Shown here one piece after another: positions 1 through 32,049 of a stretch of DNA of 32,049 nucleotides. The notes under the pieces are model-generated. The model was not told the origin of the DNA. It saw only the letters and a list, made by a program, of their open reading frames with translations, and did no database searches. The stretch is from positions 245,520 through 277,568 of the forward strand of contig CBFHOE010000003.1 of the NCBI GenBank assembly GCA_965657355.1. The letters are read 5' to 3'. The stretch comes from Limisphaerales bacterium. Its GTDB lineage: Bacteria > Verrucomicrobiota > Verrucomicrobiia > Limisphaerales > JAJOIW01. Position 1 is the first letter of the stretch; the number at the start of each line of letters is the position of its first letter. The translations under genes were made by a program, and so were the position numbers.

Positions 1-13
1 GTTAACCTGTAAA

Positions 14-1309
14 ATGAAAAAATACTCCCCTGCTATTTTTGTGTTATTATACATTCTGACTGCGATTGGTGTTTACCAAATCGGCCTAAAAAATGGTCAA
101 AAAACTCGTTCTAAAGGGGATGCTGTTGCTCAATCATCGAATCAAAACCGAGCAAATACCACCGACAGTAAAGGAGATGAAATTGGGGCTGGTCGTTCGC
201 AGCTTCCGCCAGGTTTAGCACCTGCAACCTCCCTTGACCTCATCAAAGCACAATCGGACCTCTCGGCCGATCTTATTGAATCTTTCTCCGGTCTCAACTT
301 GAACGACATTTTATCGACTTCAGATCCCGTCGACCGACTCTTCAAATTGACGGGGTATCTCAAAAATATGGATGAATCCAATGTGGATACCGTCATTGAT
401 GCATTTGAGAAATCAGAAGCTGGTTATCGAGATTGGGAACTCATGATGAATACCTGGTCCAACTTTGACCCGAAATCTGCGATGACCTACCTGGCCGAGG
501 GAGAATCTTTATCATCCAAAGAAAAAGGGGGATTAGCGCATTCGGTCGTCAAAAACTGGGCTAAATCGGACCCAATGCGAGCACTAGAATTCGTTCAATC
601 CAACGAAATCGGCTACACTAGTTCTGGAAAGTTGTCGTATACAGCTCTGGCGACCGCCATGAAGACAGATCTCAATACTGCTATTCAAATGACCTCCCTT
701 ATACAGGACGAAAAAACGAGAAACTACTCCACTGCCGCCATTGCCAATGAGTATTACGAAGTTGATCCTGTTGGAGCGAAATTTTGGGCAGAATCAATTG
801 AAGACCCCGGAATGAAAAGGGGCGCACTAGAAAAGATAACTAGAGAAATGTCAAATTCCGATCCATATGGAGCTCTCGAATATGCTATGGATCAGTTTGG
901 TGAAAATATTCCATTTTCAGCTGCTCTTTCCCTCTCCAAAAATCTTTCGAAGGAAGATCCTGCTTTTGCTCTCGAATATGCTTCCGGGATTGAGAATGAT
1001 AAAACCCGACAATACGCTATGGCCCAAGCCGTTGGTGAATGGGCAAAGGACGATCCGGTGGGCGTGGCTGAATTTCTCAATAACCAGCCTTCATCTGCCG
1101 AATGGGACGCACCAGTAGCTGCATTCGCAAGAAATGCTTTTGACCAAGACCCTTCTCAAGCCATGGAATGGGCACAGTCGATCTCTAATAATAGACTGCG
1201 GTCCTCCACAATTGGAAGCCTTTATAGAGACTGGTCGCGAAAAGATCGGGACGCAGCTCAGGCATGGGCGAGAACTCAAAAAGATAATCGACCCAAATCA
1301 GGCAAGTAA
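14..1309 (+). CDS. Membrane-anchored alpha-helical repeat protein (W-x2-x-DP-x2-A repeats typical of Verrucomicrobia), function unknown
   Basis: 431-aa ORF; N-terminal hydrophobic segment (AIFVLLYILTAIGVY); recurring motifs WSNFDPKSAMTY, WAKSDPMRALEF, WAKDDPVGVAEF, FDQDPSQAMEWA, WSRKDRDAAQAW. Confidence 0.7.
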   Translation: MKKYSPAIFVLLYILTAIGVYQIGLKNGQKTRSKGDAVAQSSNQNRANTTDSKGDEIGAGRSQLPPGLAPATSLDLIKAQSDLSADLIESFSGLNLNDILSTSDPVDRLFKLTGYLKNMDESNVDTVIDAFEKSEAGYRDWELMMNTWSNFDPKSAMTYLAEGESLSSKEKGGLAHSVVKNWAKSDPMRALEFVQSNEIGYTSSGKLSYTALATAMKTDLNTAIQMTSLIQDEKTRNYSTAAIANEYYEVDPVGAKFWAESIEDPGMKRGALEKITREMSNSDPYGALEYAMDQFGENIPFSAALSLSKNLSKEDPAFALEYASGIENDKTRQYAMAQAVGEWAKDDPVGVAEFLNNQPSSAEWDAPVAAFARNAFDQDPSQAMEWAQSISNNRLRSSTIGSLYRDWSRKDRDAAQAWARTQKDNRPKSGK

Positions 1310-9435: not shown

Positions 9436-12400
9436 ATGAATAAAAGCAAGATCCAACGACAAAAAGGGTTCAGATTCGGTATATGGCTTTTGGCCATTGT
9501 CCAAATTGTGTGTTCATTTTTCCACGTCGAAGGTTCAGTTGTTATTGAAACTCTAGAATCGCCAGTGCCACATTTTGGAGCTCCTAAAAATGGATTTTCT
9601 GTGGTCCCAGTTACTAATGGTTATGGTATAAATTTTGTTAATAAACTGAGCGAAGAGTCTGCAGCAAAAAATCGGGTTTTGATCAATGGAGCTGGATTAT
9701 CTGTTGGTGATTTTAATAATGATGGTTTGCCCGATATCTTTCTTTGCGGTTTGGATAATGAGAATCGTCTCTATCAAAATCTTGGAAACTGGAAGTTTAA
9801 GGAATGGAAAGGAACTGGTGCCACAAGTTTTGCTCTCAAAGGTATATATTCGCGCGGTTCGGTAATGGCGGACGTCAATGCTGATGGTTGGGTAGATATT
9901 CTGGTGTCCACTGTTGGTCAGGGTGTCCGGCTTTTTGTAAACGACAATGGAGATTCATTTATTGAAAAAACCAATGAATGGAACCTTGCTACGACCCACG
10001 GAAGTTCCTCTTTAGCTTTAGCAGATGTAAATCAAGATGGGTTTCTAGATCTTTATGTTGCTAACAACAGAGCTCAGGATATTCGGGATACTGGTCGGTT
10101 AAAGTTGAGAAAGGTAAATGGAAAAATCGAAATTCCCAGACACCTCAAAGATCGAATCTTCTTTGATAAAGGTATTCTCTACGAAAATGGTGAACCTGAC
10201 CAACTTTATATTAATAACAAGGGACGTGGATTCAATCTCATCCCCTGGGATAAAGGGAATTTTTTGGACGAGCAGGGGAAGCCACTGTCATCTCAGCCCC
10301 AGGACTGGGGCCTTTCAGTCATTGCTTCCGACTTTAATGGAGACGGTTTGATGGACTTTTATGTGTGCAATGATTTTTGGAGTCCAGATCGCTTATGGCT
10401 AAATCTTGGGAATACTAAATTTAAGCTCCTTGATACGAATGCCTGGCGGAACTCTTCCGCTAGTTCGATGGGAATTGATCTTGCTGATCTCAATGGGGAT
10501 GGTTACCAAGAATTTTTTGTTTTAGACATGCTGAGTCGAGATCCCGTTATGCGGAAAATGCAAAAGCATGCCCAATCTCCTCTTATACAGAAGCCAAGCC
10601 CTTTAACAACACGCCCGCAATTTTTACGCAATACACTTTATCGCAATCTGCAAGGGAAACAGTTTCAGGAACTGGCCTATTACTCAGGACTTCAAGCGTC
10701 TGATTGGTCCTGGGCTCCCATCTTTCTCGATATTAATCTAGACGGACTCTCCGATTTAATCATCACTGCTGGTCATGCACATGATGTCCAGGATTACGAT
10801 GCATCCAGAGCCGTTCAAAAACTACAAAAGCCCAGACCCGATTCACTTTCAGGTAATGAAATTAAGAAGCTTTATACTGAAGAGATGATACGGCATAACA
10901 GAATGTATCCTGACTTAGATATGCCCTTTATCTCATTTATGAATAAAGGGCACTTCAAGTTTGTTGAAAAAACCGGAGAGTGGACCGCTTCATCAAAATC
11001 AATACGACATGGAATGGCCAAAGCCGATTTCGATCTCGATGGAGATTTGGATCTGGTTATTTCCTGTCTCAACTCAGAAGTCGAACTGCACGAAAATACC
11101 GGGCAAGGAGAGAGAATCGCTGTCAAACTTCAAAGCAATAAGTATAATAGCAACGCCATAGGGGCCACATTGACACTAGAATGGCCCGGACTTGTAAATC
11201 AGTTCCGGGAGATAAGATCGGGTGGGCCCTATTTATCTGGAAACCAGTCTTTAGTCTGTTTTGCTGCTCCAAATTCCACGAGTGGGAAGACTTTGAAAGG
11301 AGAGTTACTTGTCCGCTGGCCTTCCGGTAAAGTTTCGAAACATAATAATATAGAGCCGGGGAATTTGTACCACATCACCGAAGGTAATCTAGATTACGTA
11401 AGTCCCTCTAAAACTGAAGAAGCTGATTCTTTAATGGAAGATTACAGTGATCTAATATCCAGGCATGTCGTTCCAGAATCTGACTTTAATGATTTTCTAA
11501 ATCAGCCTTTAAAACCATATAGGACGACTCGCAGAGGGCCCGGAATATCATGGGGTGATATTGATGGGGACGGAAACAATGATCTATTTGTAGGGGATAG
11601 TCAGGTTGGTAAGCCTTCAATTTTCTTCAATAAAGGCGGAAAAGGGTTTCGTCAATTTGAAGTTAAAAGGAACAAATTCACAAAAGGCGAACTTGGGGCG
11701 GCTCTGATCATATCTGAACGCAAATCCAATTCTTCTGAGGTTTTGGGTTTGCTGGACCTAAACGAATTGTCAGGGGATGGAAAACTCCTCCAACTAAATT
11801 CAGATGGAAATAATGAATATTCTTTTTCCGATGAAATAGGGGGTGTCTCTTCGGGGTATTTTTCGGCCGTTACTTTCCTGGCAAAATCAAAATCGCTTGG
11901 CTTAGTGACCGGTTCTGGTGAAGGCTCGAAGTTATTCCCAGAATCCACTTCAGCAGCCTTGTATTTGAAGAGGGATAATTTGTGGGAAAAAGAAGATTCC
12001 ATTTCTTCATTGTTACAAAGTCTTGGTTTAGTCAGCAGTGCTATCTGGACTGACATCAATCAAGATGGATTTCAGGATTTGGCTCTGGCATCCCACTGGG
12101 GGAATATCCATGTTCTCATTCAAGACCCAACCAAACCAACACTATTCTTCTCAGATAGATCTTCAGACTACGGAGTAGGCGCTTCCACCAGTGGATTATG
12201 GAATGGTATTGCCAGTGGTGATTTCAATGAAGATGGTTTTCCCGATCTTATCGCCACAAATTGGGGGTTGAATACCGATTATCAGGTTAACCCTAATGAG
12301 CCTCTAACTTTCTTTCATGGGCAAATTTCTCAGCCTGGAGTCATGGATATTATTGAAACGGAATATGACTCAAATGGAGCTAAATTACTTATGCGCCGAC

Positions 12401-13200
12401 ATCTGCCATTTGTGGTCTCATCGCTCCCCTACATTCTTGCCAATGTTCGAACAAGCAAACAATACGCCGAAGCATCGGTAGAAGCACTTCTTGGTAACAG
12501 ATTGAGGCTCGCAAAAAAAACTTCGATTAACCGGCTCGCTACATCAATTTTCCTCAGTAACGAAGGTGAACGATTTGTCGCAAAAGAACTCCCGATGGAT
12601 GCCCAACTTTCCCCCGCATTCGGTATCGGGGTGGCTGATTTTAATGGTGATGGGCATGAAGACATTTTTTTGGCTCAGAATTTTTTTGAAACCAGGATCG
12701 ATCTCGATAGATCTGACGCAGGTCTGGGAGTCATGTTAATCGGGAAAGGGGATGGAAGCTTTGATCCATTGAAACCACACGAATCTGGTATTCTTCTAAA
12801 CGGCCAACAAAGAGCCGTCGCTGTTGCAGATTTCGATTCAGATTTCAGGATGGACCTGGCGGTCTCACAAAGTAATTCCGAGGTTAAATTGTATAGAAAT
12901 TCGAACTCACCGCCAGGATATGCCATTAATTTGGTCGGGACAGACGGAAATGTCTCTGCTCTCGGAACCTCTTACCAAATCATTTTCTCCGATGGAAAAT
13001 TCGGACCATTGCGTGAAATTCACGCAGGGCATGGGGTTCTCTCACAATCGAGTCTCTCTGCCACAATACATCCCCTGAAAGCAGGGGATTTAGAGAGGTG
13101 CTCCATTCGTATCCGATGGCCTGGTGAGAGTAATTGGGTAGTGAAGTCATTCAAATTAAAGGAAAATGACTATCGACATTTCACATTCTCACAAGACTAG
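9436..13200 (+). CDS. Secreted FG-GAP/VCBS repeat protein with two ASPIC/UnbV domains (CRTAC1-like)
   Basis: Many DxNxDGxxD repeats (GDFNNDGLPD, ADVNADGWVD, ADLNGDGYQE, ADFNGDGHED); two ASPIC/UnbV-like blocks (NAIGA...GGPYLSG...VRWPSG; SALGT...GHGVLSQS...IRWPG). Confidence 0.88.
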   Translation: MNKSKIQRQKGFRFGIWLLAIVQIVCSFFHVEGSVVIETLESPVPHFGAPKNGFSVVPVTNGYGINFVNKLSEESAAKNRVLINGAGLSVGDFNNDGLPDIFLCGLDNENRLYQNLGNWKFKEWKGTGATSFALKGIYSRGSVMADVNADGWVDILVSTVGQGVRLFVNDNGDSFIEKTNEWNLATTHGSSSLALADVNQDGFLDLYVANNRAQDIRDTGRLKLRKVNGKIEIPRHLKDRIFFDKGILYENGEPDQLYINNKGRGFNLIPWDKGNFLDEQGKPLSSQPQDWGLSVIASDFNGDGLMDFYVCNDFWSPDRLWLNLGNTKFKLLDTNAWRNSSASSMGIDLADLNGDGYQEFFVLDMLSRDPVMRKMQKHAQSPLIQKPSPLTTRPQFLRNTLYRNLQGKQFQELAYYSGLQASDWSWAPIFLDINLDGLSDLIITAGHAHDVQDYDASRAVQKLQKPRPDSLSGNEIKKLYTEEMIRHNRMYPDLDMPFISFMNKGHFKFVEKTGEWTASSKSIRHGMAKADFDLDGDLDLVISCLNSEVELHENTGQGERIAVKLQSNKYNSNAIGATLTLEWPGLVNQFREIRSGGPYLSGNQSLVCFAAPNSTSGKTLKGELLVRWPSGKVSKHNNIEPGNLYHITEGNLDYVSPSKTEEADSLMEDYSDLISRHVVPESDFNDFLNQPLKPYRTTRRGPGISWGDIDGDGNNDLFVGDSQVGKPSIFFNKGGKGFRQFEVKRNKFTKGELGAALIISERKSNSSEVLGLLDLNELSGDGKLLQLNSDGNNEYSFSDEIGGVSSGYFSAVTFLAKSKSLGLVTGSGEGSKLFPESTSAALYLKRDNLWEKEDSISSLLQSLGLVSSAIWTDINQDGFQDLALASHWGNIHVLIQDPTKPTLFFSDRSSDYGVGASTSGLWNGIASGDFNEDGFPDLIATNWGLNTDYQVNPNEPLTFFHGQISQPGVMDIIETEYDSNGAKLLMRRHLPFVVSSLPYILANVRTSKQYAEASVEALLGNRLRLAKKTSINRLATSIFLSNEGERFVAKELPMDAQLSPAFGIGVADFNGDGHEDIFLAQNFFETRIDLDRSDAGLGVMLIGKGDGSFDPLKPHESGILLNGQQRAVAVADFDSDFRMDLAVSQSNSEVKLYRNSNSPPGYAINLVGTDGNVSALGTSYQIIFSDGKFGPLREIHAGHGVLSQSSLSATIHPLKAGDLERCSIRIRWPGESNWVVKSFKLKENDYRHFTFSQD

Positions 13201-24221: not shown

Positions 24222-25205
24222 CTACCCGCCTGCATTCCGAAATGAATGCAGGTCTCTTATTCCAGTGCCGCTCATGCTATGTGCCACTTTCCCTCTCTTT
24301 TTCCCGAGCCATTGGTGGCGATGCTCGAAATATTCCTTTAAATAATCAGCGCTTCCGATAGCTAGCCCTTCGCTAAAATATCTAATTTTCATCTTCAGTG
24401 CTTTTTTTACACTCAACACCCCCTTGCGCTCTCTCTCCGCCATGACTTCCTCAGGAGTAAAACTTTTCTTGCCCTCCCGTTGTTCACCCCCCACTTCGTA
24501 CAAATATACTCGATATCGATGGAGTGCCTCTTGCCATTCGTTTATGCCCGTTCTTCCTGCGCATAACTGCATAATGCCTTTTCTGGCTTTCTTTCCTCCT
24601 GCTATCGCTTCTGCGTAGGAACTCCATCGATATTCGCTGGGGTCCCGAACCATTCCAGCACGTATTGGGTTCAATTCAATATAAGCTGCTGTTCGCATTA
24701 AAGCGTTTTCGCGACCTTCTATGGAGACACTTTTAAAGCGTTCCTCCCACAATGTTCCCTTCCTGTCTAATTTACGATTATACCAGCTACTAAATTTCTG
24801 TTTTATGTCTCTGACAAAGCTAGAAAGGTTATACATTCTCTGACGCAACTGGTCATAAAGTTCTTTCTCATACCTGATATTCCCGAAGTTTTTGTGGCGT
24901 TCGATCATTATATCCATCTGAGCAATTTTCTTTTTAGAGTAGATATTTTTCATCCTGCGGCGCACTTCCTCATCAGAGATTTCATCTGGCTTGACTGGCA
25001 AATGAATTAGAAGATGAAAATGGTTCCCCATGAGGCAATAAGACAGGACTTCCAGGCCAGTAAAGGCTTCGTGTTTTCGAATAAGCCTCAGTAAATACTC
25101 ATTTTCATTATCTTCCATGATGATCCGTCTATCCACAACCCTACTGATCACATGAAAACATTGGGCTCGGTTTTTTGAGATCTGAACATTCCTTGGTACT
25201 CGCAT
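24222..25205 (-). mobile_element. rayT: REP-associated tyrosine transposase (RAYT, Y1 HUH, IS200/IS605 superfamily)
   Basis: FHVISR, YCLMGNHFHLL (HUH), YNRK...GTLWEERFKS, AYIELNPIRAGMV (catalytic Tyr), YRWSSY. Start reassigned to ATG 25205 (MRVPR). Confidence 0.88.
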
Positions 25206-25215
25206 ATTCGTCGTG

Positions 25216-25243
25216 ATTTTAAAAAACAATGGAACTATGTCAA
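25216..25243 (-). promoter_or_regulatory. Sigma70-type promoter of rayT
   Basis: Minus strand TTGACA (25243-25238), 16-nt spacer, TAAAAT (25221-25216); ATG begins 11 nt after the -10 box. Confidence 0.65.
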
Positions 25244-25283: not shown

Positions 25284-26273
25284 CTAAACGTATTTTCTTG
25301 CTCTTATGTCCTCAAGTATGGCGTAGAGGTCTGGGATGGAATCGATGTTGTGTATGTTTCTGGCTTGTGATTTGGATTTGACCGAAGCGTAAGCATATGC
25401 GCTTTTTCCACCAAGAATGATGCAGGTTGAGGGCGGAAGGTAATCGTGCAGGCGCCCAATTTCATCAGGCAGCTTTGGGTCGTCAGCCGGGTATACAATA
25501 CTCAACGCAACTGCTTTTGCGGAGATTTGAGTGGCCGCACCAGCAATTTCTTCAGCATTGATGTTTGATCCGAGGTATTTGCAGTTCCAACCAACAGACG
25601 AACCTGCAGCATAAACCATGGCAGCGCCTAGCTCGTGGAGCTGACCACTTGGAGTTGCTATAATCAATTTGGGCGCCAACGGGTCAGTGACGTATGGGCG
25701 ACCAATTTCGCATAAAAATTGTCTGATTATTGCTGATGAGAAATGTTCATGGGCAACTTTTAGATTTCCTCCCAGCCACTGTTCTCCAATTGTTTTGGCC
25801 AAGGGACCAATAACCTTTTCAATGAGCCCTTGATGTCCAAATTGCACAGCACCTGCTCTTAGGTTGTTGACAAGCGCCACTTCATCCAGTTCTTTCGTTG
25901 CGACAAGACATTTAGAGACCACTTCACTTGGTGTTAATGGTTTTGTGAAAGTGTTAGGATTGAATTGCTGATTCTTTTCGACTTGCTGGTCCTCATGGAT
26001 GAGTTCCTTGAGTTCGGCGTATGACATCTTTGCTAGCTGCCCGATTCTGTGCCCGCGCTCAGAAGCCAACCTCATATATGTGAGGCGTTGAATATCTTCG
26101 TCGTTGTAAAGTCTTCTGTTGGATCCTGTTCTTTTTGGGGTTACGGCTCCATACCTTTTCTCCCATATCCGCAATACATGAGCCGATAACCCAGTGCGGA
26201 TAGACACAACCTTGATAGGGTGCAGGTTATCCTCTGCCGGTCCAACGCTTATCTCCGAAGATCTCACATTCAT
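25284..26273 (-). CDS. carH: CarH/LitR-type MerR-family adenosylcobalamin-binding photoreceptor/transcriptional regulator
   Basis: MerR HTH with LRIWEKRYG and RRLY; W-x9-EH motif (WLGGNLKVAHEH); B12-binding QLHELG followed by YLG and VALS...GG Rossmann elements. Confidence 0.88.
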   Translation of the reverse strand: MNVRSSEISVGPAEDNLHPIKVVSIRTGLSAHVLRIWEKRYGAVTPKRTGSNRRLYNDEDIQRLTYMRLASERGHRIGQLAKMSYAELKELIHEDQQVEKNQQFNPNTFTKPLTPSEVVSKCLVATKELDEVALVNNLRAGAVQFGHQGLIEKVIGPLAKTIGEQWLGGNLKVAHEHFSSAIIRQFLCEIGRPYVTDPLAPKLIIATPSGQLHELGAAMVYAAGSSVGWNCKYLGSNINAEEIAGAATQISAKAVALSIVYPADDPKLPDEIGRLHDYLPPSTCIILGGKSAYAYASVKSKSQARNIHNIDSIPDLYAILEDIRARKYV

Positions 26274-26501: not shown

Positions 26502-27566
26502 ATGAATGCCACTCGGTCAACAACAGGAAATAGGGTCGTCAATCCCGGCAAAAGCCGCAGAAGCGAATCTTCCAAAAATGAAATCAAAGAATCATCGACG
26601 CTGGACGGGAAGATACTGCTTGCAGATGAACTCCCTGAGAAAGTTCAACTCCGAGTTGAGTCTCCTAAACAAACCAGGAAATCAGCCCCTATTCCAAGCA
26701 TTAATGAAACAGGAAGCTCCTTAGGGCGATACATGCATGAAATAGGTCAAGTCGACCTTCTCAAGCCGGAAGAGGAGAGAGAGCTTGCTGCATTGATTCA
26801 CGCAGGTGACGAATCAGCCCGCGAAAAAATGATCACTGCAAACTTGAGACTGGTCGTCAAGATTGCTAAAGAATACGAAGGATTTGGCCTTCCATTACAA
26901 GACCTCATAAACGAGGGCAATATAGGCCTTATGAAAGCTGTTGAAAGATTTGATCCTAGCAAAGGAAGCAAACTATCTACATACGCTTCCTGGTGGATCA
27001 AACAGGCTGTCAAAAGGGCTCTTGGCAACCAAAGCAAAACAATTCGTTTGCCGCTACATTTGGTGGACCGGCTTTCAAGGATGCGAAAAATTGCTAAAAA
27101 ATATTTCGAGGAATTTAAAAGGGAACCTACAGATGAGGAACTATCAGACGAGCTTGAAATAGCATTGCCGAGAGTGAGATTGTTGAGACGAGCCAGCATG
27201 CGTCCTCTTTCATTGGAAACACCCATTGGGGATGATGAAAGCAGCAGCATAAGCGACATTGTCCCGGATGAAAAAGCTATCAATCCGTACGATCAGCTCG
27301 AAGACAAAGCGCTCAAAGGCTTACTACCAGGTTTGATGCAAACGCTGACATTCCGCGAAGCAGAAATTCTTAAGAGAAGATTTGGGTTGGACGGGAATCC
27401 GGGAATGACACTTGAGGAGGTTGGTGAGCTTTTCGGGGTTACTCGTGAAAGGATCCGGCAGCTTCAAAACGCAGCCCTCAAAAAACTAAGAACCAAAATT
27501 GAGCAGGATCAAGACGTCAATGATTTGGAATTTGATGAAATCCCCCTATTTGCCCAAGCCAGTTAA
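26502..27566 (+). CDS. RNA polymerase sigma-70 factor, RpoD/RpoS-like (regions 1.2-4, no recognisable region 1.1)
   Basis: YMHEIGQVDLL (1.2), ANLRLVVKIAKEY, DLINEGNIGLMKAVERFD, STYASWWIKQ, KTIRLP, TLEEVGELFGVTRERIRQ (4.2). Confidence 0.93.
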   Translation: MNATRSTTGNRVVNPGKSRRSESSKNEIKESSTLDGKILLADELPEKVQLRVESPKQTRKSAPIPSINETGSSLGRYMHEIGQVDLLKPEEERELAALIHAGDESAREKMITANLRLVVKIAKEYEGFGLPLQDLINEGNIGLMKAVERFDPSKGSKLSTYASWWIKQAVKRALGNQSKTIRLPLHLVDRLSRMRKIAKKYFEEFKREPTDEELSDELEIALPRVRLLRRASMRPLSLETPIGDDESSSISDIVPDEKAINPYDQLEDKALKGLLPGLMQTLTFREAEILKRRFGLDGNPGMTLEEVGELFGVTRERIRQLQNAALKKLRTKIEQDQDVNDLEFDEIPLFAQAS

Positions 27567-27823: not shown

Positions 27824-30800
27824 ATGAATAAACCTAAACACACAAAATTGAGTTGGATTTTGGGGCTTATTGTCGCTGTTGCGCCATTGGCATCCCAAGC
27901 TGCTCTTGATTTCCGAGTCTACGGAAGTGCCGCGTTGGGCGGTTTTGATATTGCTGGTGCTGCGGTCGCTGATTTGACTGCAGATAGCCAATATCCCGAT
28001 GAACCATCGGCTGTAGAATTGGTCACTGCGCTTCCTGGAGAACCAGGAATTAACCTGATCGAACTTACCACTGGTAATTTCGAATTTCGCCAAACTGTTA
28101 ATGGCTTCGCACAAGGTAACTCCGGATTGGATAACTACGGTGGAGCGATTTCAGGACTTCTATACGCTCCCGCCGATGGAAGTTATACATTCCACGTAAG
28201 ATCTGACGATGCTTCGCAGTTCTTCCTCAGCACTGACGCTGACGCGGACAACATGGTTCTCTTAGCTGAAGAGACTGGTTGTTGCGGAGGTTTCACTAAA
28301 GACGCCCCAGAAGGGTCTGAAGCTGTTGAGCTTGAAAAAGGTCAAGCTTACTACTTTGAATTCCTATTCAAAGAAGGTGGCGGAGGTGACTGGTTCCAAG
28401 TAGGTTGGGCACTTGATGGTGGCGAAATAGAAGTCATCCCTGCTGCTTATCTCCAAAGGGACATTAGTAGCCGCGTCTCGGATCTCATCGAAGAGCCATT
28501 AGACTTCTTCACCACTCCTAACGATTTCATGGATCTTGAGCCATTCGTAACTGAAAACATCGAAACCAGTATTGATTTTATTGTCGAATTCAACAAAGAC
28601 GGCGCAGCTGCCATCCAATGGCAGATGAACGACGGTGGCGGCTGGGACGACATTGAAGGTGCTGTCAGCCCGTTGCTTACTGTTGACATTTCCGTTGACA
28701 AAGACGGCAACCAATACCGCGCTAAGGTTGATGACGAAACTTCTATGGCCTACACACTTATTGTTGAACCAGATACAGAGGCTCCAACAGTTAGATTCGT
28801 CAGCCACAGAGGTAACCCAAATGCTTTCATTGCTGCATTCTCTGAGCCAGTAGATCCTGATTCTGCTCTCGATCTCTCAAATTATGAATTCGATGGAAAA
28901 CCACTTCCTGAAGGAACGACAATCAGTCTTAACGACGCGGGAACAGAGGTTATTGTTCTTGGCCCATTCAACATGGAAGAGGGTGACAGAAAATCTGTTT
29001 CTTTCTCAGGTATCGTTGACCGTGCGGCTACTCCAAACGAAATCGAAGGTTTTGACAAGACATTAGCTTACGTTGGTGGCGAAGGCATTACTTATGATTT
29101 TAATGACGGTATCCCTACCGATGGTGATGGAAATCCAATCATGGAGCTCTTCGGAAACGCGGAAGTTCGCGACTCTGGCGGTGTTGGTGATTCCGGATAT
29201 CTAAAAATCACTGATGGTGCTGGAAGCCAACTTGGTGCGGCCCTCATCACTCAGCGTATCGATGTTCAGCAAGTTATTTTCAGCTTTGATGCCCGTATCG
29301 GTGATACATCAGGTCGTCCAGCTGACGGTTGGTCATTCAACGTTGCTGATGACATGCCGACTGGCACATACCAGCAATCAGAAGAAGGATACCGCGGTGG
29401 AGAAAGTGATCCGCCACAAGGTTTGGTTGTCGCAGGTGACAACTGGTCATCTGGTGGTGCTGACTTAGGTGTCGGTATTGAAGTTAAGTATGCTGGCGAA
29501 TCTCGCGCATTCGTCGCTACTCCTGAAGTCACATCAGGTGGAGCGCCTACAGAAAGCCCTGAAGGTATACCTTCTATTCACCGAGGTGACAGATGGTTCC
29601 CAGTTTCAATCGCACTAGGTGAAGACGGAACAGCTACAGTCGTTTATGATGGTGTCACTATCATGGAAAATGAGCCAGTCGGTTGGGAAGGTGTTTCTGA
29701 CGCACAGATTGGTTTTGGTGCCCGAACTGGTGGTGCCTGGGAATCACACTGGTTTGATAACGTTAACATCAACCTTTCTGGAGGCCCTATTGGTCCTGTG
29801 ACTATGGAGCAGCAGCCAGAAGGTGTATCTGGAGCAGCAGAGCACTCACAGGTTACACTATCTGCTATAGCTGGTGGAGCTACATACGGCCGTTCTTTCC
29901 AATGGTATAAAGTTGGCGGTGGCGCCGGAGTTGCAGGAAACATTTCTAATGTATCCCTTGCTGACGGAAACATCGCAATAACCTACGTCGGTTCACTTGA
30001 ATCATCAGACAGTGTCAATGGTCCTTGGACCGCGGTTGCTAGCTCAGCCACCGAAGCCACTTACTCAGAGGCAGCATCTGGTAATGAAAAGTTCTTCCGC
30101 GTTCTTGACGCCGCTGGTGGCGGTGATGGCGAAGGCGTTATGCTTGAAGGTGAAACAAGCAGCAGCTTGAGTTTCACAGCAACACCAGCAGCAGCGGGTC
30201 AATACTATGTTGTTGCGTCCAACTGGTTCTCTGATGTCCAATCCGATACGGTCTCTGTGACAGTCGTTCCAGATACTGTTGCTCCAATGGTTGTTTCTGT
30301 ATCAGGTTCACCATTAAACAACTCAGCGACTGTGACTTTCTCTGAGCCAGTTTCTGAAGAAACTGCTGGAAATGCTGACAACTACAGCATCGAAGGTCTT
30401 GAAATCACAGGCGTTACTGTAAGCAACCCAACGACTGTTTCGGTTATGACTGCTGATCAGGCTGATGGAACTCCATACCAGTTATCTGTTAGCGGAGTCG
30501 CCGACTTAGCCCAAACTCCAAATGTCACAGATGGAACACCAAACGAATTTATCTCGTTTGAAGAAGGTTTTGGCGGTCTGACAGTCCTCTTTTATGACCA
30601 TGGAGGAACAAGTCTAGACTTCTATCCTGAAGAAGATCGTGGAAGAGGTTTATACCCAGATAACTTCAACCCATTTGGAACTGGACCAAACATCACTGAC
30701 TTGAGTAACCGTAATTCTTCAACTACACCTTATTTTGAAGCACCGGCTACTGGTGACATCAATGTTGTCCCTCCTTCAGGCGTGGCAAACGACTACGCTC

Positions 30801-32049
30801 TCGTGGTCTACGGATACATTGTTCCACCACAAACAGGTAACTACAGATTCGGTATTGGTGCTGATGATAATGCGGCACTCTACCTCTCATCTGATGATGA
30901 TCCAGAAAATGCAACACTCATCGCTAACGAAAATGAGTGGAACAGCAGACGTGAATACGACAAAGATATCAACAAATCTGAGCCTATCTTCCTTGAAGAA
31001 GGTGAAAGATATTATGTTGAGGCTTTGATGTCTGAAGGTGGCGGTGGTGACAACCTCGCCGTTGCTTGGGAATTCGCACCAGATGGTGAGGAGCCTGCTG
31101 ACATAGCCAACGGAACTCTTCCAATTGCTGGGGAATACCTAATCAGTAACTTGCCTGTATTCAGGTTCCCTGAACTCTTGGCTGCTAGCCCAGCTGATGG
31201 AGCAAATGGCTTCCAAGCTGACACTGGAACTGCAAGCTTCACTTTCCAAGACGGTAAGTTTAGCCCAATGGACACAGACAGCGTCGAAGTCAAACTCGGC
31301 GACGAGATGCTAGAATCTGAAGTAACAGCAGGTGGTAACATCACCATCACTGCAACGCTTCCAGAACTTCTCGACCTGAATACAAGCTACACAATCACTG
31401 TATCTTACGGTGTTGGCGGATCTGATGAACCTATGACTCACACATTCACCTTCCAGACTGAAGACATCCCAACATTGGCTAACAAAGCTGCTGATGTCGG
31501 AGCTGGTGGAAACTCAGGTATGCTCGTTAACGCTCGCCAAAGCACAGAAGGTCGCGGTAATAGCACTGAAGATGCCGAAGCTCAAATAGCTGGTGGTGGA
31601 GACCTATTCGAAGCGGATAATGTCGAAGTGATATACATCAACCATAACCAGGACGTCGGTGGAAATGCTGGACGTTTTGGAGATGACATTGGCATGTTCG
31701 ATGCAGGTCTCATGGATGAAATCAACACTGACAACATCTCATGGGAGGTCTTAACATATGTTGAATTCACAGAAGCTGGTATTGTCACTATGGCTGTCAA
31801 TTCTGACGATGGATTCCGTGTCACACACGGTGAGGAGCCTGCGCTAAACGATGATGATCAAGTTCTTGGTGTCTTCAGCGGTGGTCGCGGTGCATCGGAC
31901 ACAATCTTCCGTTTCGTAGTTCCTGAGCCAGGTATCTATCCAATGCGACTCCTTTGGTATGAAGGCGGCGGCGGAGCCAACGTCGAATGGTGGACATTGG
32001 ATGCTGACGGAGTTCGTCACTTGATCAATGGACCTGACGACAGTGCTGC
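27824..32049 (+). CDS. Very large secreted acidic surface protein, partial (>1400 aa): three PA14-like domains, Ig-like and Big_5-like domains, L-type lectin-like domain
   Basis: Absent from the ORF track because it has no stop in the window. Manual translation from ATG 27824 is open to the end: MNKPKHTKLSWILGLIVAVAPLASQA signal; PA14 motifs YTFHVRSDDAS...KEGGGGDW, YRFGIGADDNA...SEGGGGDN, VNSDDGF...YEGGGGANVEW; DTxAP...FSEPV twice; PADGWSF...GFGARTGG. Confidence 0.9.
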   Translation, partial: MNKPKHTKLSWILGLIVAVAPLASQAALDFRVYGSAALGGFDIAGAAVADLTADSQYPDEPSAVELVTALPGEPGINLIELTTGNFEFRQTVNGFAQGNSGLDNYGGAISGLLYAPADGSYTFHVRSDDASQFFLSTDADADNMVLLAEETGCCGGFTKDAPEGSEAVELEKGQAYYFEFLFKEGGGGDWFQVGWALDGGEIEVIPAAYLQRDISSRVSDLIEEPLDFFTTPNDFMDLEPFVTENIETSIDFIVEFNKDGAAAIQWQMNDGGGWDDIEGAVSPLLTVDISVDKDGNQYRAKVDDETSMAYTLIVEPDTEAPTVRFVSHRGNPNAFIAAFSEPVDPDSALDLSNYEFDGKPLPEGTTISLNDAGTEVIVLGPFNMEEGDRKSVSFSGIVDRAATPNEIEGFDKTLAYVGGEGITYDFNDGIPTDGDGNPIMELFGNAEVRDSGGVGDSGYLKITDGAGSQLGAALITQRIDVQQVIFSFDARIGDTSGRPADGWSFNVADDMPTGTYQQSEEGYRGGESDPPQGLVVAGDNWSSGGADLGVGIEVKYAGESRAFVATPEVTSGGAPTESPEGIPSIHRGDRWFPVSIALGEDGTATVVYDGVTIMENEPVGWEGVSDAQIGFGARTGGAWESHWFDNVNINLSGGPIGPVTMEQQPEGVSGAAEHSQVTLSAIAGGATYGRSFQWYKVGGGAGVAGNISNVSLADGNIAITYVGSLESSDSVNGPWTAVASSATEATYSEAASGNEKFFRVLDAAGGGDGEGVMLEGETSSSLSFTATPAAAGQYYVVASNWFSDVQSDTVSVTVVPDTVAPMVVSVSGSPLNNSATVTFSEPVSEETAGNADNYSIEGLEITGVTVSNPTTVSVMTADQADGTPYQLSVSGVADLAQTPNVTDGTPNEFISFEEGFGGLTVLFYDHGGTSLDFYPEEDRGRGLYPDNFNPFGTGPNITDLSNRNSSTTPYFEAPATGDINVVPPSGVANDYALVVYGYIVPPQTGNYRFGIGADDNAALYLSSDDDPENATLIANENEWNSRREYDKDINKSEPIFLEEGERYYVEALMSEGGGGDNLAVAWEFAPDGEEPADIANGTLPIAGEYLISNLPVFRFPELLAASPADGANGFQADTGTASFTFQDGKFSPMDTDSVEVKLGDEMLESEVTAGGNITITATLPELLDLNTSYTITVSYGVGGSDEPMTHTFTFQTEDIPTLANKAADVGAGGNSGMLVNARQSTEGRGNSTEDAEAQIAGGGDLFEADNVEVIYINHNQDVGGNAGRFGDDIGMFDAGLMDEINTDNISWEVLTYVEFTEAGIVTMAVNSDDGFRVTHGEEPALNDDDQVLGVFSGGRGASDTIFRFVVPEPGIYPMRLLWYEGGGGANVEWWTLDADGVRHLINGPDDSA

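Follow-up and report, generated by a model that had tools for sequence, protein, structure and literature searches.

Probable relocation of a small FN3-like module from the C-terminus into an Ig-domain loop of a secreted protein from a Limisphaerales bacterium

Nesting and relocation of the module in P0004

The window analysed here is a stretch of 32,049 nucleotides from the genome of a Limisphaerales bacterium (assembly GCA_965657355.1, contig CBFHOE010000003.1, positions 245,520 to 277,568), near the end of which lies the gene of P0004, a large secreted protein of PA14 and immunoglobulin (Ig) domains. The subject of this work is a segment within one Ig domain of that protein. This segment is very probably an FN3-like beta-sandwich of about 56 residues, which was moved together with a glycine linker from the C-terminus of the protein into the internal C-C' loop of the Ig domain. 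The nested, relocated copy is a new finding.

The order of domains in P0004 is signal peptide, PA14, Big_5, Ig with the nested module, Big_5, PA14/GLEYA, Big_5 and PA14-like, and the Pfam search of the translation (27824-32047) returned PA14, GLEYA and Big_5. The insert comprises 75 residues (29912-30136), lies between strands C and C' of the Ig domain and consists of a glycine linker, the 56-residue module and a second glycine linker. A preliminary description, made from the DNA letters, had proposed that the insert splits the Ig domain directly after the FQWYK motif (residues 692-696, from 29897), between glycine linkers. The translation confirms this arrangement, with the end of the insert at 30136, 6 nt beyond the 30130 given before. 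The same description had raised the question of whether the complete protein also ends with the module. It does not: the protein ends with AAFKAYQDVN and a stop codon 25 nt outside the window, and a terminal module copy is not present.

Full-length relatives, gathered by a search with residues 600-900 of P0004, fall on two sides of this arrangement. P0005 (1416 aa), which comes from another data set, is 79-81% identical to P0004 and has the same nested architecture. In P0006 (1413 aa), P0007 (1422 aa) and P0008 (1404 aa) the Ig domain is uninterrupted (FQWYRVPTGGGEPIMIDGATS...), and the chain runs past ...AAFNAY... into a linker and a terminal module copy (...GKLQSAPTVNGPWTDVAGASSPYSEAVATGAKFFRVVP). 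P0004 and P0005 stop at AAFKAYQDV(N/D), and the total lengths of all these proteins are nearly the same. In the same-genus genomes G001 and G002, the P0004 query matches in two pieces and skips residues 703-763. All four same-genus homologues (L029-L032, in frames of 1325-1446 aa) combine a continuous Ig domain with a terminal copy; the uninterrupted Ig sequence common to them and to P0006-P0008 is QWYRVPAGGGDPVMIEG, and the alignment has a 67-column gap in four relatives at the position of the insert. At two of four close loci (L034 and L036), the homologue is followed by the same cyclophilin-FKBP peptidyl-prolyl isomerase (PPIase) gene and by the same next gene as here (64-67% identity for the isomerase, 43-46% for the next gene), and these two are therefore positional homologues; L033-L036 were not counted as independent of L029-L032. 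Downstream of the P0004 stop codon there is a terminator-like hairpin and, 160 nt on, the isomerase gene, and a search with the hidden Markov model (HMM) of the module at maximum sensitivity found no module relic in this place. The core of the insert shares 44-54% identity with the terminal copies of the homologues, whose whole-protein identity is 50-57%, as against 25-38% with the eight remaining copies in its own genome. Since the homologues have only the terminal copy, and P0004 and P0005 only the nested one, the module was relocated rather than added, and P0004 and P0005 have lost the terminal copy.

The cores of P0004 and P0005 are 70% identical, which corresponds to the 9th percentile of all 57-residue windows of the two proteins (median 82%, minimum 60%). 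The near-invariant positions of the family alignment A8 (G23, L25, G33, F57 and R59) are all present in the P0004 copy and, by eye, are retained in the P0005 copy as well. Judged by these positions, the relocated copy is conserved without a free C-terminus. The preliminary description had taken the internal copy to mean that the module does not need a free C-terminus. Conservation in the internal position agrees with that view; the copy is, nevertheless, a relocated one and not an additional one. In trees built from 63 columns the nested pair is monophyletic (100/99) and sits on a long stem of 0.92-0.95 changes per site. A clade of 88 support with PA14-family tails was seen in the unfinished 136-row tree, was gone in the finished tree and was not used.

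The junctions offer some indications of the route of the move. The Ig C-C' loop of the relatives reads V-P-A-G-G-G-D-P-V-M, and the right junction of P0004 reads ...FFRVL-D-A-A-G-G-G-D-G-E-G-V-M, with the codons GCT GGT GGC GGT GAT as against GCA GGT GGC GGT GAT in L029. On the left, the junction reads QWYK-V-G-G-G-A-G-V-A-G-N-I, similar to the linker before the module in L031, V-G-G-G-G-G-D-A-E-I. Both junctions carry an imperfect direct repeat of 17 nt (76% identity, spacing 204 nt) made of glycine codons, which is a weak hint of microhomology or of a duplicated target. A cassette of glycine linker plus module (67-68 codons) may have been copied or moved into the loop beside the GGG codons, perhaps through glycine-codon microhomology, and the terminal copy would have been cleanly deleted.

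The nested arrangement is not an assembly artefact. The source genome, that of an uncultured marine bacterium, is assembled in 55 contigs, a circumstance that would allow for an assembly chimera or a decaying pseudogene, but the frame is open over 1417 codons and P0005 repeats the architecture in another data set at the identity given above. Moreover, half or more of the words sampled from a 901-nt stretch over both junctions are present in 16 public marine runs, and contigs of four runs from three studies, including two RNA libraries, pass through both junctions with 0-1 differences and neither joints nor indels. The contigs of X1 (an RNA library) and X8 span the 901-nt stretch entirely, X16 (an RNA library) covers 29633-30346 and X11 covers 29600-30190. 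A chimera or a pseudogene is thus an extremely improbable explanation.

The module family and its predicted fold

The nested module had been described as aligning with the C-terminal tail of P0002, a neighbouring protein of the window. As a pairwise statement this does not stand, as direct BLASTP gave no alignment at E<=100; through intermediates it does. When 17,970 six-frame open reading frames (ORFs) from the genome were searched with phmmer, the insert and the P0002 tail had matches to four other ORFs in common, each at the C-terminal end, and the E-values to the C11 tail are 1.1e-5 for the insert and 1.1e-7 for the P0002 tail. The two segments are homologous because both match the same C-terminal ends of intermediate ORFs. 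An HMM iterated to convergence finds nine module copies in the genome, of which eight end 1-3 residues before a stop codon. The sole internal copy is the P0004 insert, where another 656 residues of the stop-to-stop frame follow the module. The consensus of the module is ...G.I.I.(Y/W).G.L.SAPS..GPW..V.GA.SP.......KFFRV.

The distribution of the module along the chain was tabulated in two sets of proteins. A profile of the nine copies matched 6117 representative clusters at E<=1e-3 among 1.84 billion proteins, and the first set is made of the best 150 of these 6117 representatives by hmmsearch, a sample biased to high scores. Among these best 150, 99 of the 103 single-copy carriers end at most 5 residues after the module; 41 further proteins hold at least two copies in tandem arrays (the last copy is terminal in 19), and 6 have no copy at the cut-off. 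The second, independent set (n=122) joins a word-indexed search for longer proteins with relatives from earlier searches. It contains 117 proteins with a single terminal copy, 2 with several copies and 3 with a single non-terminal copy (P0004, P0005 and P0217). The P0004 module was also recovered by the A8 profile from a set of 5.8 billion proteins (E 3.7e-13). The description of a normally C-terminal Verrucomicrobial domain therefore needs to be qualified: the terminal position is the rule, but the family is not strictly terminal, given the tandem internal arrays and the copy right after the signal peptide in P0217, and, by the source names of the matches, it is not limited to Verrucomicrobia. 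In P0217 (889 aa) the module occupies residues ~39-94, directly after the signal peptide and thus at the N-terminus of the mature protein, and a Pro/Gly-rich stretch comes next. Two tandem terminal copies occur in many relatives, e.g. at residues 577-742 of P0172 and in P0026, P0030, P0033, P0034, P0039, P0040, P0055 and P0079.

In the same order, 51 of 61 genomes contain the module with 1-45 matches each, against nine in this genome. The carriers are lectin-like and carbohydrate-active proteins with Laminin_G_3, I-set, PA14, GH16, malectin and other domains. A signal peptide was recognised by eye in seven of the nine carriers of this genome; for the other two, taken without an assigned start codon, the inspected stretch showed none. 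Neither the insert nor the P0002 tail matches any Pfam or NCBIfam model at E<=10, Por_Secre_tail (TIGR04183) and fn3 included. The A8 profile found in the PDB sequences only a chance antibody match (E 0.53), the ESM Atlas returned only nameless short clusters, mostly of Verrucomicrobiota, with scores of 0.89-0.91, and the portions of papers reached by a literature search neither name the module nor give it a function. By these sequence searches, the module family is very large and unnamed and lies outside Pfam and NCBIfam.

The structure of residues 600-905 of P0004 was modelled with AlphaFold from an 18-row alignment (A7), which was checked column by column. The mean predicted local distance difference test score (pLDDT) of the model is 79.2, and the means of ten-residue blocks are 88-95 over the module core (model residues 111-160); over the two Ig halves they are 85-86 and 87-90. 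In a superposition search over 48,161 PDB representatives, single Ig domains of the C2/I-set type match model residues 55..216 with no more than 81-92 residues aligned, passing over the insert. The match to 3bfo_A covers 84 of 85 residues with a root-mean-square deviation (rmsd) of 1.8 and Z 11.9, and the match to CD22 (5vkj_A) covers 88 residues with an rmsd of 1.9 and Z 12.7. Therefore, the two halves form one Ig domain in the model. The Pfam Ig_3 model likewise matches the host domain in two stretches (E 0.001). Together with the uninterrupted Ig domains of the relatives, this upholds the earlier view of one domain nested in another, as opposed to two sequential domains: in the model, the host Ig folds as one domain, from which the module loops out on two glycine-rich tethers. 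The module was also predicted alone (51-row alignment, 63 residues), with pLDDT 92.5 and a predicted template modelling score (pTM) of 0.75. Its strands 6-13, 16-28, 36-50 and 57-61 are those of the nested model after an offset of 101, in agreement with the folded module expected from the letters.

The VIA fold list for the module is filled by FN3 domains (Z 4.2-5.5, 60-63 residues aligned), and these alignments stop before the FN3 G strand (4..77 of 96 in 3mpc_B, 0..74 of 95 in 3b83_A and 3..74 of 90 in 7jgu_A). In a profile comparison with hhalign, the family profile met five Pfam-defined FN3 domains of carriers with a probability of 65.9% across 36 of 63 columns (E 5.7e-5), pairing I.I.W.G.LQSA.sv.GPWt.V with v.LsW......Y.vkrAt.sGGPYttI. 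The module shares with FN3 (Pfam PF00041) the small beta-sandwich, the I.W motif of the B strand, the Y/L.v.(S/R)A....GP(W/Y)t.v stretch and an F-strand motif of the FYRV type. It differs in length (~56 residues versus ~85-90), in a shortened B-C loop, in the lack of a Pfam fn3 match and in the end of the chain, which after the F strand stops or becomes a glycine linker, with no G strand. On the basis of the models, the module may be read as an FN3 derivative of strands A to F which ends right after the F strand (KFFRV) and lacks the G strand. Membership in the FN3 superfamily is likely and moderately supported. Without strand G, the FN3 topology brings the two chain ends to the same side of the domain and leaves the A/F edge open. 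Both ends on the same side suit insertion into a loop. As a separate observation, MAFFT placed Ig strands on the module or the reverse in four alignments, all of them discarded (A3, A4, A5 and A6); in A3, A4 and A6, the first strand of the module came to lie on the Ig B strand and KFFRV on the Ig F strand YYVVASN. These mix-ups are a hint that the module looks Ig/FN3-like and is distantly similar to its host domain.

Coordinates and gene neighbourhood

The features of P0004 and the terminal module copy of P0002 are collected in Table 1.

Table 1. Positions of the nested module, its host domain, the junction repeats and the neighbouring terminal copy in the window.
Feature	Position in window (nt)	Residues	Strand	Basis or remark
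Gene of P0004, secreted multidomain PA14/Ig protein	27824..32049, ORF to 25 nt past window end	1417 aa	+	ORF translation, Pfam
Host Ig, N-terminal half, strands A-C ending FQWYK	29786..29911		+	Alignment with relatives' uninterrupted Ig; model strands 57-63, 77-86, 92-98
Left glycine linker VGGGAGVAG	29912..29938	697-705	+	Identical in P0005
Nested module core NISNV...KFFRVL, 56 aa	29939..30106	706-761	+	HMM E 4.0e-21; AlphaFold; fold search; hhalign
Right linker DAAGGGDGEG	30107..30136	762-771	+	A-G-G-G-D is the original Ig C-C' loop of relatives
Host Ig, C-terminal half, strands C'-G, VMLEGE...QYYVVASN...VSVTVV	30137..30268	from 772	+	Alignment, model, superposition
Left copy of imperfect 17-nt direct repeat	29914..29930		+	Partner 30118-30134
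Right copy of junction direct repeat	30118..30134		+	Partner 29914-29930
Terminal module copy on P0002, ending FFITR before the stop codon	17181..17351		+	phmmer and genome HMM

P0002 (13359-17351) is an F5/8-type-C/Ig/LamG protein of 1330 aa with the end ...EGARFFITR, for which Pfam returned F5/8-type-C, Ig and Laminin_G_3. Its Ig domain is continuous (IQWYKDGQPIPGATGAELTL), as the preliminary description had it. The protein has four tandem F5/8-type-C (discoidin) repeats of ~145 aa with the near-identical motif DVTQPGD.I.ASSDNSPGSEGVAN.IDNQPTKYLNFDK, which are followed by the Ig domain, LamG and the terminal module.

Upstream of both module carriers, at 9436-13200 (+), the window encodes a 1254-aa FG-GAP/ASPIC-UnbV repeat protein. 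A 335-aa ORF at 24222-25229 (-) matches an IS200-like Y1 transposase in residues 25-80 only (E 1.6e-10). A MerR-type regulator with B12-binding domains, of CarH-like architecture, is encoded at 25284-26273 (-), and a sigma-70 family gene at 26502-27566 (+) is divergent from it; this pair lies just upstream of the PA14/Ig gene.

Candidate functions of the module and their significance

The prediction of two module copies together was used to assess self-association. It scored 0.46 (runs 0.46, 0.62 and 0.40) against 0.00 for the best control. Of proteins with solved structures, 20 of 30 pairs of one chain and 1 of 23 single chains reached the mark of this test, figures that are rough here because an alignment made for this work was used. 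At least 100% of contacts are shared by the runs, and the pLDDT of the partner is at least 86. The predicted interface (residues 5-15, 17, 19, 31, 51, 53 and 55-60) is formed by the first and last strands, i.e. by the edge expected to be open for lack of a G strand, and the model, the one direct indication of binding, supports it in this respect. The tandem terminal copies of many relatives could pair within one chain via the same edge. We tentatively favour, as the working mode of the module, position-independent association or anchoring over a C-terminal export signal, at a strength somewhat below an even chance. The binding surface would be the edge of the first (A) and last (F) strands, open for want of a G strand. 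This edge may pair with a second copy, located on the same secreted protein or on another one, or with a cell-surface partner, and such pairing would keep large glycan-binding proteins and enzymes assembled at the cell surface. That the module usually sits at the chain end would then reflect the need for nothing after the F strand to fill or cover the edge, not the recognition of a free C-terminus, and a glycine-rich linker might meet the same need. Docking or anchoring without a free C-terminus, as proposed in the preliminary description, is plausible on these grounds. The statement as a whole, in which the relocation is joined to this mechanism, comes close to an even chance and remains slightly below it.

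The terminal bias of the family is so extreme (8/9, 99/103 and 117/122) that the module might instead be a C-terminal export or sorting signal, similar to the C-terminal domain (CTD) of type IX secretion systems (T9SS), and would be recognised and perhaps cleaved by an outer-membrane machinery. The signal peptides seen by eye in 7/9 carriers and the lectin-like proteins and glycoside hydrolases among the carriers are in line with such a role, as are the size and sandwich shape, which resemble those of the solved T9SS CTD 5hfs_A (Foldseek TMq 0.57, TMt 0.55, rmsd 2.9 over 56 columns), although the E-value of 1.8 is not significant. Like the Por_Secre_tail domain, the module is a small C-terminal beta-sandwich found on many unrelated secreted proteins of one phylum. 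It differs from that domain in its profile, in being functional or at least conserved when internal or N-terminal, and in its tandem arrays. The nested copy would be, on the sorting-signal explanation, a tolerated relic, or would still be recognised since the signal is conformational. Against this explanation, the nested copy is kept at 70% identity between P0004 and P0005 while the terminal copy is gone, the module of P0217 stands at the mature N-terminus, internal tandem arrays exist, and neither Por_Secre_tail nor any other sorting model of NCBIfam or Pfam matches. TIGR04189 (SprA) and TIGR04183 (Por_Secre_tail) were not found in the genome (G000, 92% complete), and the control genomes were equally silent. 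Taken together, a sorting signal appears quite unlikely. A signal of the PEP-CTERM/exosortase type finds no correspondence in the module, which is all-beta, 56 aa long and without a hydrophobic helix, and which matches no NCBIfam model. The genome does contain one PEP-CTERM match above the curated cut-off (G000:C3:407810-407878), and therefore the module family exists side by side with a signal of the exosortase type.

Carbohydrate-active enzymes of bacteria often contain FN3-like domains as spacers. The module may accordingly be viewed as an FN3-like structural spacer or cap without a specific partner, whose relocation was neutral and was tolerated by the flexible linkers. The long tandem arrays, the long stem of the nested pair and the generic fold matches fit this explanation. 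A spacer is, however, not expected to form the last 55-60 residues of many unrelated architectures, with 0-5 residues after the FFRV motif, nor to keep the near-invariant G, L, GPW and F.R positions in a relocated copy, and the homodimer prediction passed its controls. We consider a mere spacer rather unlikely, and the association module remains our tentative preference.

Several observations weigh against relocation and association as proposed here. A terminal bias as strong as this would be expected of a C-terminal signal. The trees do not place the origin of the nested pair: it has no firm position in the 136-row tree, it joins the L032 tail at only 89/49 in the 23-row tree, and a clade with the tails of the homologues is merely not rejected (p-AU 0.272). 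Moreover, the nested pair combines its long stem with the loss of the common SAPS and SP motifs, and the function of the nested copy may therefore have changed or weakened. The fold matches of the module are weak (best Z 5.5), which is expected for 63 residues, and Foldseek found nothing for it in the PDB at E<=1e-3. The dimer is a prediction on an excised domain of 63 aa, and such models easily pair exposed beta edges; the open A/F edge itself is deduced from general knowledge of the FN3 topology and from the interface residues of the model. Finally, the presence of the junctions in RNA libraries is no proof of transcription, because such libraries can hold DNA.

Known systems offer partial parallels. 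Dockerins are likewise small, usually C-terminal, and placed on many different extracellular proteins related to carbohydrates, where they serve association and not catalysis; occasionally they are internal. Their fold of Ca-binding helical repeats is unrelated to that of the module, and the interaction predicted for the module is homotypic. Ig-like folds completed in trans, as in chaperone-usher pilins and in the Ig complex of myomesin and obscurin-like-1 (PMC5222588), are also sandwiches without the last strand, in which the open edge is the interaction site; the open edge of the module is suggested by the model and the predicted dimer only. As in nested domains generally, a complete domain stands in a surface loop of its parent, with insert termini close together and glycine-rich linkers. 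The particular feature here is that the insert is the protein's own former terminal domain, and that the change is caught between homologues of one genus, with the gene order shared in two of them. By analogy, the module seems most like dockerins in its logic and most like pilins or trans-completed Ig domains in its incomplete fold, and it is a member of none of those families.

The relocation adds a well-documented example of a domain transposed within one gene into an Ig loop, for which terminal and nested natural versions of the same protein are available for comparison. Clean relocation between close homologues is rare direct evidence that the module tolerates the absence of a free C-terminus and probably works without it, a result that speaks for a folded interaction module and against a sorting signal of the classical C-terminal kind. 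In Verrucomicrobiota, this module forms the end of many large secreted proteins. A more far-reaching, and at present doubtful, proposal is that the module represents a homotypic docking system, widespread in Verrucomicrobiota and neighbouring phyla and so far undescribed, in which the open edges of FN3 domains devoid of the G strand would zip copies together and so assemble different secreted lectins and glycoside hydrolases into complexes at the surface. If true, this system would be a functional counterpart of the cohesin-dockerin system, but symmetric and independent of the position in the chain, and the relocation described here would be a natural experiment that separates an association module from a C-terminal signal.

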